Assembly: GCF_003334335.1 (NCBI RefSeq)
Contig: NZ_QOWQ01000235.1
Source: Escherichia coli
GTDB taxonomy: Bacteria > Pseudomonadota > Gammaproteobacteria > Enterobacterales > Enterobacteriaceae
Length of the DNA stretch: 227 nt
Reading direction: 5' to 3' (one strand)
Made by a program: the position numbers and the translations under genes. The notes beneath the pieces are model-generated. The model had not been told where the DNA came from. It did no database searches and saw only the letters and a list, made by a program, of their open reading frames with translations. Shown piece by piece: positions 1-227 of the stretch; the first letter of the stretch is position 1, and every line of letters begins with the position of its first letter.

Positions 1-58
1 CTAGTGCGGCAATAATGTATGTTCCGATGCTGTAAATTTCCCCGGGTACCAGCCTTCC
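1..58 (-). other. Start of a non-collagenous C-terminal segment ([19 protein letters not shown]...) immediately after the last Gly-X-Y triplet; continues beyond window position 1.
   Basis: Gly periodicity is lost after G57 (next Gly are at residues 62 and 68). Composition switches to hydrophobic/aromatic residues (I, Y, L, A, V), and local GC falls from about 67% (positions 41-227) to about 40% (positions 1-40) by hand count. Confidence 0.55.
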
Positions 59-227
59 GGTTGGCCCTTGTGGTCCCTGTGGTCCGGGTTCACCTGTCGG
101 GCCCTGTGGACCTGTCGGGCCCTGTCTTCCTGTTTCTCCCTGCAAACCTCGTGGCCCCGTTTTACCCGCAGGACCTGCCGGACCAACCGGCCCCGGAACA
201 CCCTGTGCCCCCGCTGGTCCCCTTTCA
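1..227 (-). CDS. Partial CDS (both ends outside the window) for a collagen-like triple-helix repeat protein; reading frame has codons at window 226..224, 223..221, ... 4..2. No start or stop codon in the window.
   Basis: Hand translation of the reverse complement gives 75 codons with no stop. Gly occupies every third position for 19 consecutive positions (G3 to G57), giving 18 complete G-X-Y triplets, then periodicity ends at [19 protein letters not shown]. The truncated upstream codon ends in T, compatible with GGT (Gly), so the repeat probably continues beyond position 227. Such strict 3-residue Gly periodicity is not expected by chance. Confidence 0.8.
56..227 (-). repeat. Collagen-like Gly-X-Y coding repeat region (protein-level repeat, period 9 nt), probably continuing past the window edge at 227.
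   Basis: Triplets in order: [54 protein letters not shown], then a 19th Gly. X is Pro in 11 of 18 triplets; Y is Gln 6, Thr 5, Ala 3, Pro 2, Val 1, Arg 1. The + strand here is strongly C/T-rich, as expected for the antisense of GGN-CCN-NNN codons. Confidence 0.8.
93..125. repeat. Perfect 15-bp direct repeat (cctgtcgggccctgt on the + strand) at 93-107 and 111-125, separated by 3 bp (period 18 nt), lying inside the collagen-like CDS.
   Basis: Read directly from the sequence. On the coding (minus) strand the unit is cagggcccgacaggt, encoding Q-G-P-T-G twice within [12 protein letters not shown]. Confidence 0.85.

Follow-up and report, generated by a model that had tools for sequence, protein, structure and literature searches.

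A collagen-like stretch of Escherichia coli DNA and its probable place at the shaft-to-tip junction of a lambda Stf-type prophage side tail fiber

The collagen repeat and the gene that contains it

The window, meaning the whole 227-nucleotide stretch of Escherichia coli DNA analyzed here, corresponds to residues 373 to 447 of a 523-amino-acid (aa) protein. When all six frames were read, minus-strand frame 2 was the only one open from end to end, and it carries 19 unbroken Gly-X-Y triplets at positions 50 to 220 (plus-strand coordinates). The minus-strand reading enters the window with Glu-Arg and base 227, which belong to a GER triplet beginning upstream; once this triplet is counted, the repeat fills positions 50 to 227, and it extends upstream past base 227. 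The initial annotation had placed the repeat, with no strand given, at positions 56 to 227, and its true span is thus slightly larger. Across 5,000 shuffled versions of the window, with all six frames scanned, no Gly-X-Y run exceeded 6 triplets (mean longest run, 2.3), against the 19 observed, and the 75-aa translation of the window matched the Pfam Collagen family (PF01391) at residues 3 to 58 (E = 2e-10), bearing out the collagen-like character claimed earlier. Also as claimed, the repeat is continuous over at least 165 bp: whole triplets account for 171 nt of the window and, in the complete gene, run on for 351 nt (39 triplets), all within an uninterrupted coding sequence. Bases 1 to 49 are not collagen-like and encode the first 16 residues of a C-terminal domain, and the G+C content falls from 0.67 in the collagen part to 0.49 at these positions. 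The features of the window are as follows.

Positions 50 to 227, minus strand: C-terminal 59 residues of collagen domain 2 (Col2), the shaft segment adjoining the tip; last base of Gly372, Glu373-Arg374, and then Gly375-Leu431 (19 triplets) of the 523-aa protein (translation, triplet count, and Pfam)
Positions 1 to 49, minus strand: start of the tip domain, Val432-Leu447 followed by the first base of Gly448; the domain as a whole spans residues 432 to 523
Positions 92 to 126, minus strand: 18-bp tandem duplication, 1.9 copies, 94% match (Tandem Repeats Finder and codon table)
Positions 65 to 147 (approximate), minus strand: variable patch of Col2, about residues 399 to 426 (alignments of phage homologues)

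Among the 19 triplets of the window, Pro stands at X in 11 and at Y in 2, Gln or Thr occupies Y in 11, and Lys or Arg is found at X in GKT, GRQ, and GRL. With the last triplet, GRL, left out, the counts given in the initial annotation were reproduced exactly (Pro at 11 of 18 X positions and 2 of 18 Y positions), as was the dominance of Gln (6 of 18) and Thr (5 of 18) at Y. The 18-bp duplication encodes GPT-GPQ / GPT-GE(P), a two-triplet unit doubled at the DNA level.

The window is identical over its full length to Escherichia phage PhiR5_1 (PV340545.1, positions 46807 to 47033; 100% DNA identity) and to four complete E. coli chromosomes (100%); four sister phages match it at 99% identity and two more at 84 to 85%. 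It was found in 36 of 5,426 complete E. coli genomes, always on the chromosome. In PhiR5_1, the coding sequence that holds it (L001, 6886 to 8457; 523 aa) is uninterrupted and in frame with the window. The gene order there is M, L, K, I, J, Lom, the 523-aa coding sequence, and a "tail fiber assembly protein," and in an E. coli prophage it is L, K, I, J, the coding sequence (annotated as "prophage tail fiber N-terminal domain-containing protein"), and a DUF4376 protein. The 523-aa coding sequence therefore occupies the position of lambda stf, and the next gene occupies that of tfa. The GenBank phage record calls the product merely a "hypothetical protein," and the RefSeq names for identical sequences are "collagen-like protein," "tail fiber protein," and "prophage tail fiber N-terminal domain-containing protein." The downstream gene, which begins 19 nt after the fiber coding sequence, matches DUF4376 (Pfam, 7.9e-20) and phrog_1141, and DUF4376 was its only Pfam family; the tail-fiber-assembly family of lambda Tfa was not among its Pfam matches. 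An Eib-like gene with a YadA anchor lies near the fiber gene, and this may parallel the gene order of phage P-EibA.

The identity to phage and E. coli DNA, together with the tail-gene context, supports the earlier assignment of the repeat to a prokaryotic or viral rather than an animal collagen, and of the examples offered with that assignment it is the prophage tail fiber that is specifically supported. Similarity searches with the whole 523-aa protein gave the following anatomy.

Residues 1 to 134: PfN (Pfam phage_tail_N, PF08400; E = 2.5e-42)
Residues 1 to 91: StfN collar domain, matching residues 1 to 91 of PDB 9E7M chain Ta, "Tail fiber protein" (E = 4.6e-29)
Residues 100 to 134 (approximate; about 35 aa): short coiled coil, Ala/Glu/Lys-rich and helical in character
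Residues 136 to 256: collagen domain 1 (Col1), 121 aa, 40 triplets with one GDPGGPPG break at 187 to 194
Residues 263 to 304: Pf2 repeat (Phage_fiber_2; E = 8.7e-16)
Residues 315 to 431: collagen domain 2 (Col2), 117 aa, 39 unbroken triplets
Residues 432 to 523: non-collagen C-terminal tip, 92 aa

In the full-length scan, Pfam Collagen was reported at residues 135 to 249 (Col1; E = 3.9e-08) and Col2 was missed, probably through composition-bias correction. The best PHROGs match was phrog_366, "tail fiber protein" (5e-123), followed by many further tail-fiber families, and the Mu fiber protein S chains in the PDB matched residues 256 to 304 only. We consider it highly probable that the gene to which the window belongs encodes a trimeric side tail fiber of the lambda Stf type and is carried by a temperate lambda-like coliphage or prophage. 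We found no evidence contradicting the identification as a fiber.

Relationship to prophage collagens and to lambda Stf

Ghosh et al. (PLoS One 7:e37872, 2012; PMC3368898) defined the prophage collagen-like proteins EPclA to EPclD. Examples of EPclC are ORF-401 of phage P-EibA and ECED1_2081 of E. coli ED1a (520 aa; Col domains, 118 and 117 aa), and these authors described a G-X-P-G-G-P-X-G interruption conserved in the first Col domain (PMC3368898). The literature on P-EibA added nothing to their account. The fiber studied here resembles EPclC in having PfN, two Col domains split by Pf2, the break in Col1 (here GDPGGPPG), a PCoil that is short or absent, a C terminus that is not PfC, a prophage location, a nearly equal length (523 aa, with Col domains of 121 and 117 aa), and a bias toward Pro at X combined with Gln, Thr, Ala, and Lys at Y. 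It differs in the Lys and Arg residues at X (GKT, GRQ, and GRL), which are rare in the published prophage set (0.3%; PMC3368898). In addition, ED1a is not among the 28 complete genomes that carry the tip at the DNA level, and the tip may therefore be a different variant. EPclA and EPclB (ECs2717, and Z1483 of the Stx2 phage 933W) share PfN, a coiled coil, and a collagen helix with the present protein, and EPclB also has Pf2, but here PfC (PF06820) is absent and PCoil is about 35 aa long, compared with 109 to 116 aa in EPclA and EPclB. The window is the junction of collagen shaft and tip in an EPclC-type side tail fiber that is related to lambda Stf.

The relationship to lambda is clearest at the N terminus. 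PDB 9E7M is the virion of Ur-lambda, in which residues 1 to 91 of gpStf form a collar domain touching gpV and gpM, and its four trimeric side fibers bind OmpC ahead of the binding of J to LamB (PMC12617516). The lambda shaft consists of a coiled-coil proximal domain and distal domains, the distal part being T4 gp37-like, and the word "collagen" is absent from the main text of that paper (PMC12617516). The protein encoded here shares with lambda gpStf a homologous StfN domain, the Pf2 repeat, and a position after J and lom and ahead of an assembly gene, and like gpStf it would form a trimeric jointed fiber that speeds adsorption; it differs in having two collagen helices as its shaft, an unrelated tip, and DUF4376 downstream. 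No match to a gp37-like distal domain or to an OmpC-binding tip was found in the fiber protein beyond the Pf2 repeat, and the protein is thus a Stf homologue at its N terminus only, with a different shaft and tip.

These comparisons suggest how the fiber may be built and used. By homology with Ur-lambda, the PfN/StfN domain (residues 1 to 91) would dock the fiber on the tail tip as a collar. Recombinant EPclA forms dumbbell-shaped trimers that have a hinged stalk and a true collagen helix (Tm, 42°C), and its C-terminal domain nucleates refolding (PMC3368898). By analogy with EPclA, Col1, the Pf2 repeat or hinge, and Col2 would form a thin jointed rod. The collagen rise per residue is 2.88 Å (PMC3368898), and at 0.286 to 0.288 nm per residue each collagen helix would be about 34 nm long, with the 57 residues of the window contributing about 16 nm. 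The tip (residues 432 to 523), judging from its position and from the PfC domain of EPclA, most likely nucleates both trimerization and the folding of the triple helix from the C terminus. Its position and the same kind of analogy further suggest that it binds a cell-surface receptor, which would speed adsorption before J engages its own receptor, and the place and record annotation of the DUF4376 protein make it a probable chaperone of the tip. Without a prolyl hydroxylase, helix stability would come from Pro at X (about 50%) together with Gln, Thr, Ala, Lys, and Arg at Y, which would explain why Pro is rare at Y.

Variation among homologues and alternative readings

When four phage homologues were aligned, every Gly of the repeat was invariant, and the insertions and deletions in the collagen domains were all multiples of 3 aa (3, 6, 9, 12, 15, and 18). 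As read from the alignment, Gly conservation together with triplet indels is the signature expected of a constraint on triple-helix register. The variable patch is swapped for a different Gly-X-Y sequence in PhiR12_3 (equal length), PhiR5_2 (shorter by 3 aa), and PhiR12_5 (shorter by 15 aa), and the parts of Col2 and the tip that flank it are nearly identical among the homologues; in PhiR5_2, 218 nt align to the 227 nt of the window. A diversity-generating retroelement acting on the patch was considered and set aside, the differences being whole-segment swaps and triplet indels. In a codon comparison of PhiR5_1 with PhiR5_2, 111 of the 133 PfN codons differed, but all 58 codons of Pf2 and 84 of the 92 of the tip were the same, which indicates that the fiber gene is mosaic. 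The Pf2-Col2-tip cassette follows a long PCoil in PhiR5_2 and PhiR12_3, giving these fibers a layout like that of EPclB. In PhiR5_2 the fiber gene comes straight after the head genes, the arrangement of 933W-type phages. It appears that a Pf2-Col2-tip-DUF4376 cassette has been swapped between lambda-like and 933W-like E. coli phages.

A rival reading is decay, with the window lying in a prophage remnant whose collagen is shuffled by repeat recombination without selection as a fiber. In-frame deletions of collagen sequence do occur among relatives in the databases (proteins of 287 and 426 aa), many of the database entries are partial proteins, and lambda PaPa itself has a frameshifted stf (PMC12617516). 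Many of the partial proteins, however, come from short contigs of less than 4 kb, every indel keeps the triplet register, the tip is 94 to 100% conserved, and eight plaque-forming phages, propagated independently, carry the gene intact. We therefore think decay a very unlikely account of the locus.

The composition of the repeat bears on the kind of protein to which it belongs. We compared likelihoods under the X/Y class frequencies in Table 4 of Ghosh et al. 2012 (PMC3368898), in which the prophage class has 48.1% Pro at X and 7.4% Pro at Y, with Lys/Arg, Ala, Thr, and Gln at Y, and human collagens have about 34 to 42% Pro at Y. For the 19 triplets of the window, the log likelihoods (lnL) were −66.3 for the Gram-positive class, −72.0 for the prophage class (EPclP), −74.8 for the viral class, and −75.2 for human fibrillar collagen. 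For the 79 triplets of the whole protein, they were −273.8 for EPclP, −298.2 for human fibrillar, −301.7 for viral, and −303.0 for Gram-positive collagens. The whole protein has Pro at 50.6% of X positions, and its leading Y residues are Ala, Thr, Gln, and Lys. The whole protein thus separates the classes clearly and the window triplets do so weakly. The compositional argument of the initial annotation points in the right direction, but the window alone gives only modest evidence: a short Gly-X-Y stretch can indicate a non-animal collagen through its X/Y bias, but weakly. The origin of the window is settled by DNA identity and gene context, its composition not being decisive by itself.

The preference of the window for the Gram-positive class (lnL, −66.3), which follows its Thr/Gln bias at Y, would suit a bacterial surface adhesin or an exosporium protein resembling BclA, Scl, or Lcl, one that serves the bacterium and not the virion. 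Such proteins do resemble the fiber in having a hydroxyproline-free helix, Thr and Gln at Y, and a globular trimerization domain at one end; a possible link to virulence was raised by Ghosh et al. (PMC3368898); and the BclA structure 1wck matched residues 327 to 402 at 4e-06. The NCBIfam models for Scl2, Scl1, and Lcl of Legionella all scored below their curated cutoffs (146 versus 325, 131 versus 400, and 117 versus 500 bits, respectively), far short of them, and the Scl, Lcl, and BclA matches all lie inside the Gly-X-Y repeat. Outside the repeat there is no homology; flanking domains, cellular role, and host are all different. The host here is E. coli, the N terminus is a lambda StfN-like collar domain and not a member of a surface-anchoring family, and plaque-forming phages carry the gene within their tail module. 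We consider a surface protein even less probable than decay. The BclA and Scl proteins cited in the initial annotation hold as analogues of the fiber and fail as relatives, Scl2 reaching 146 bits where the cutoff is 325.

An animal origin, in which the window would be an exon of a collagen gene from a metazoan or another eukaryote or a contaminant, is scarcely credible, even if rat collagen alpha-1(I) and alpha-2(I) lead the PDB sequence matches of the full protein at about 1e-75. These matches consist of 10 to 13 overlapping repeat alignments with very high bias, and they stand at the top because the repeat is shared, which is not evidence of kinship. Queries with collagen repeats return animal collagens first for compositional reasons, so that a best hit to a metazoan collagen, which the initial annotation had named as refuting its view, is an unsafe criterion: rat type I collagen chains did come out on top in the PDB search, yet they are not related to the fiber. 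The DNA of the window matches a coliphage and E. coli chromosomes at 100% identity, and the complete repeat, 39 triplets without a break, is flanked by phage domains in one open reading frame. Enrichment of Pro at Y, the metazoan pattern, was found neither in the window (2 of 19) nor in the whole protein (10 of 79). If Pro occurred at Y with a frequency of 33.5%, 2 or fewer in 19 triplets would be seen with P = 0.023, and the 12.7% of the whole protein compares with about 34 to 42% in human collagens (P = 2e-5).

A different coding frame, either plus-strand frame 3, which also has a Gly-Pro periodicity ("GPCGPCGPG..."), or the 66-aa minus-strand frame 3 open reading frame at positions 1 to 201, which was the only one returned by the open reading frame lister since the true frame extends beyond the window on both sides, can be dismissed: plus-strand frame 3 is interrupted by a stop near base 30 and shows a Cys-rich pattern unfit for a triple helix, the annotated coding sequences in GenBank and RefSeq and the Pfam Collagen match are all in minus-strand frame 2, and it is in this frame that Gly recurs at every third residue and that many of the differences among homologues are synonymous. 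GGN-CCN periodicity accounts for the other open frames.

The C-terminal tip and its significance

The kind of protein encoded here, a prophage collagen-like fiber, and its X/Y bias were published in 2012, and sequences identical to the window have already been annotated; what novelty remains lies in the uncharacterized tip domain. We found no description of this particular fiber, and no experiment on it, in the literature. The four phage homologues agree at each of the 16 tip residues encoded in the window, and over the whole tip 84 to 92 of the 92 codons are identical among phage homologues. The tip had no match in Pfam, including none to PF06820 (PfC) at E ≤ 10, and its best match in the PDB, a water-soluble chlorophyll protein at E = 0.1, was rejected. 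In PHROGs it gave weak matches to the C-terminal ends of tail families (phrog_17472, 3e-4, and phrog_366, 0.027), which suggest at most a remote link to other fiber tips.

The distribution of the tip is narrow. A phmmer search of 1.84 billion representative proteins returned relatives that were all at least 91% identical, plus four weak matches (E = 3.6e-8 to 2.9e-4); the latter are long proteins with Ig-like repeats, overlapping the tip in a short hairpin-like motif, "IKDxNGN...DGNF," and were not treated as homologues. A word-index homology search with the tip found 17 near-identical E. coli proteins, most of them partial. Of 50,697 phage records, 8 contain the tip, all of them from the PhiR panel, and so do 28 of 5,426 complete E. 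coli genomes. Among these matches, the tip, which is the sole poorly known part of the fiber, is known only from E. coli prophages and phages. An AlphaFold2 model of the end of Col2 with the tip (116 aa, single sequence, no trimer) was unusable (mean pLDDT, 38.8; pTM, 0.21). That the tip is an undescribed receptor-binding and trimerization fold, one that nucleates the collagen helix and sets a new host range, is a tentative proposal that we think rather unlikely.

For annotation, the "hypothetical protein" label in the GenBank record could be corrected, and otherwise the finding has little importance beyond annotation. The tip and its DUF4376 partner might be of use in host-range engineering or in the design of hydroxyproline-free collagen with a compact C-terminal nucleation domain.

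Reading frames and annotation of the fibre gene

Two further readings of the window were considered:

Window 1-201, minus strand frame 3: 66-residue shadow ORF with a GTG start
Window, plus strand frame 3: Cys-rich pseudo-collagen reading (GPCGPCGPG...)

Both were rejected as genes, being artefacts of GGN-CCN codon periodicity. Annotation of the fibre gene itself is inconsistent, because its product in Escherichia phage PhiR5_1 (XSB41338.1 in PV340545.1; locus L001, 6886-8457) is labelled "hypothetical protein" in GenBank, whereas "tail fiber protein" is the name given to its homologues in PhiR5_2, PhiR12_3 and RefSeq genomes.

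The C-terminal tip and the genes downstream

Three features lie at or beyond the 3' end of the fibre gene:

Window 1-49, minus strand; L001 8179-8457: 92-residue tip, an orphan domain
L001 8477-9055: gene annotated "tail fiber assembly protein"
L001 9851-10924 (PhiR5_1), third gene downstream of the fibre gene; also L005 8737-10002: YadA-like membrane anchor gene

No Pfam family or PDB relative was found for the tip, and an AlphaFold2 single-sequence model gave no usable structure. Apart from near-identical proteins of E. coli prophages, it has no relatives; with Ig-like repeat proteins it has only a short motif in common, IKDxNGN...DGNF. Multiple matches occur in some E. coli strains: separate hits to window or tip DNA number a median of 2-3 per matched genome and a maximum of 8 (NZ_CM129862.1, with NZ_CP116067.1 at 7); one chromosome may carry several prophages bearing related fibres, and some of these places may be partial, collagen-only matches.

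The product of the adjacent gene matches only DUF4376 (PF14301, E = 7.9e-20) and phrog_1141; the Pfam search returned DUF4376 alone, without the tail-fibre-assembly family of lambda Tfa. DUF4376 may be a distinct fibre-chaperone family and the partner of this tip. Further downstream, the phage anchor gene product matches PF03895 (YadA-like membrane anchor) at residues 299-357 (E = 9.8e-16), and its E. coli homologue is named "YadA C-terminal domain-containing protein" in RefSeq. The gene appears to encode an Eib-like trimeric autotransporter and to be cargo adjoining the fibre genes. Phage P-EibA presumably has an Eib-like autotransporter gene and fibre genes arranged as in PhiR5_1. ORF-401 of P-EibA was classed as EPclC, a class of prophage collagen-like proteins, by Ghosh et al. 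(PMC3368898).

Shaft length and possible exchange of fibre modules

Two E. coli relatives, P0018 (287 residues) and P0020 (426 residues), are in-frame deletion variants of the fibre, which shows that shaft length is altered by recombination between Gly-X-Y repeats. In P0018, Col1 is joined straight to the end of Col2, without the Pf2 repeat.

The PhiR5_1 gene was also compared with two phage homologues:

L002 4487-6448: PhiR5_2 fibre gene
L003 1469-3457: PhiR12_3 fibre gene

The Pf2-Col2-tip cassette is nearly identical across the three phages. Codons identical to those of PhiR5_1 number 58/58 in Pf2 and 84/92 in the tip for both homologues, and 57/58 (PhiR5_2) and 47/58 (PhiR12_3) in Col2 upstream of the window. 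In PhiR5_2 and PhiR12_3 this cassette is attached to a strongly divergent PfN and a long coiled coil, and head genes (the phrog_334 major head protein and others) directly precede the fibre gene. Taken together, these observations suggest that fibre modules are exchanged between lambda-like and 933W-like tail types.
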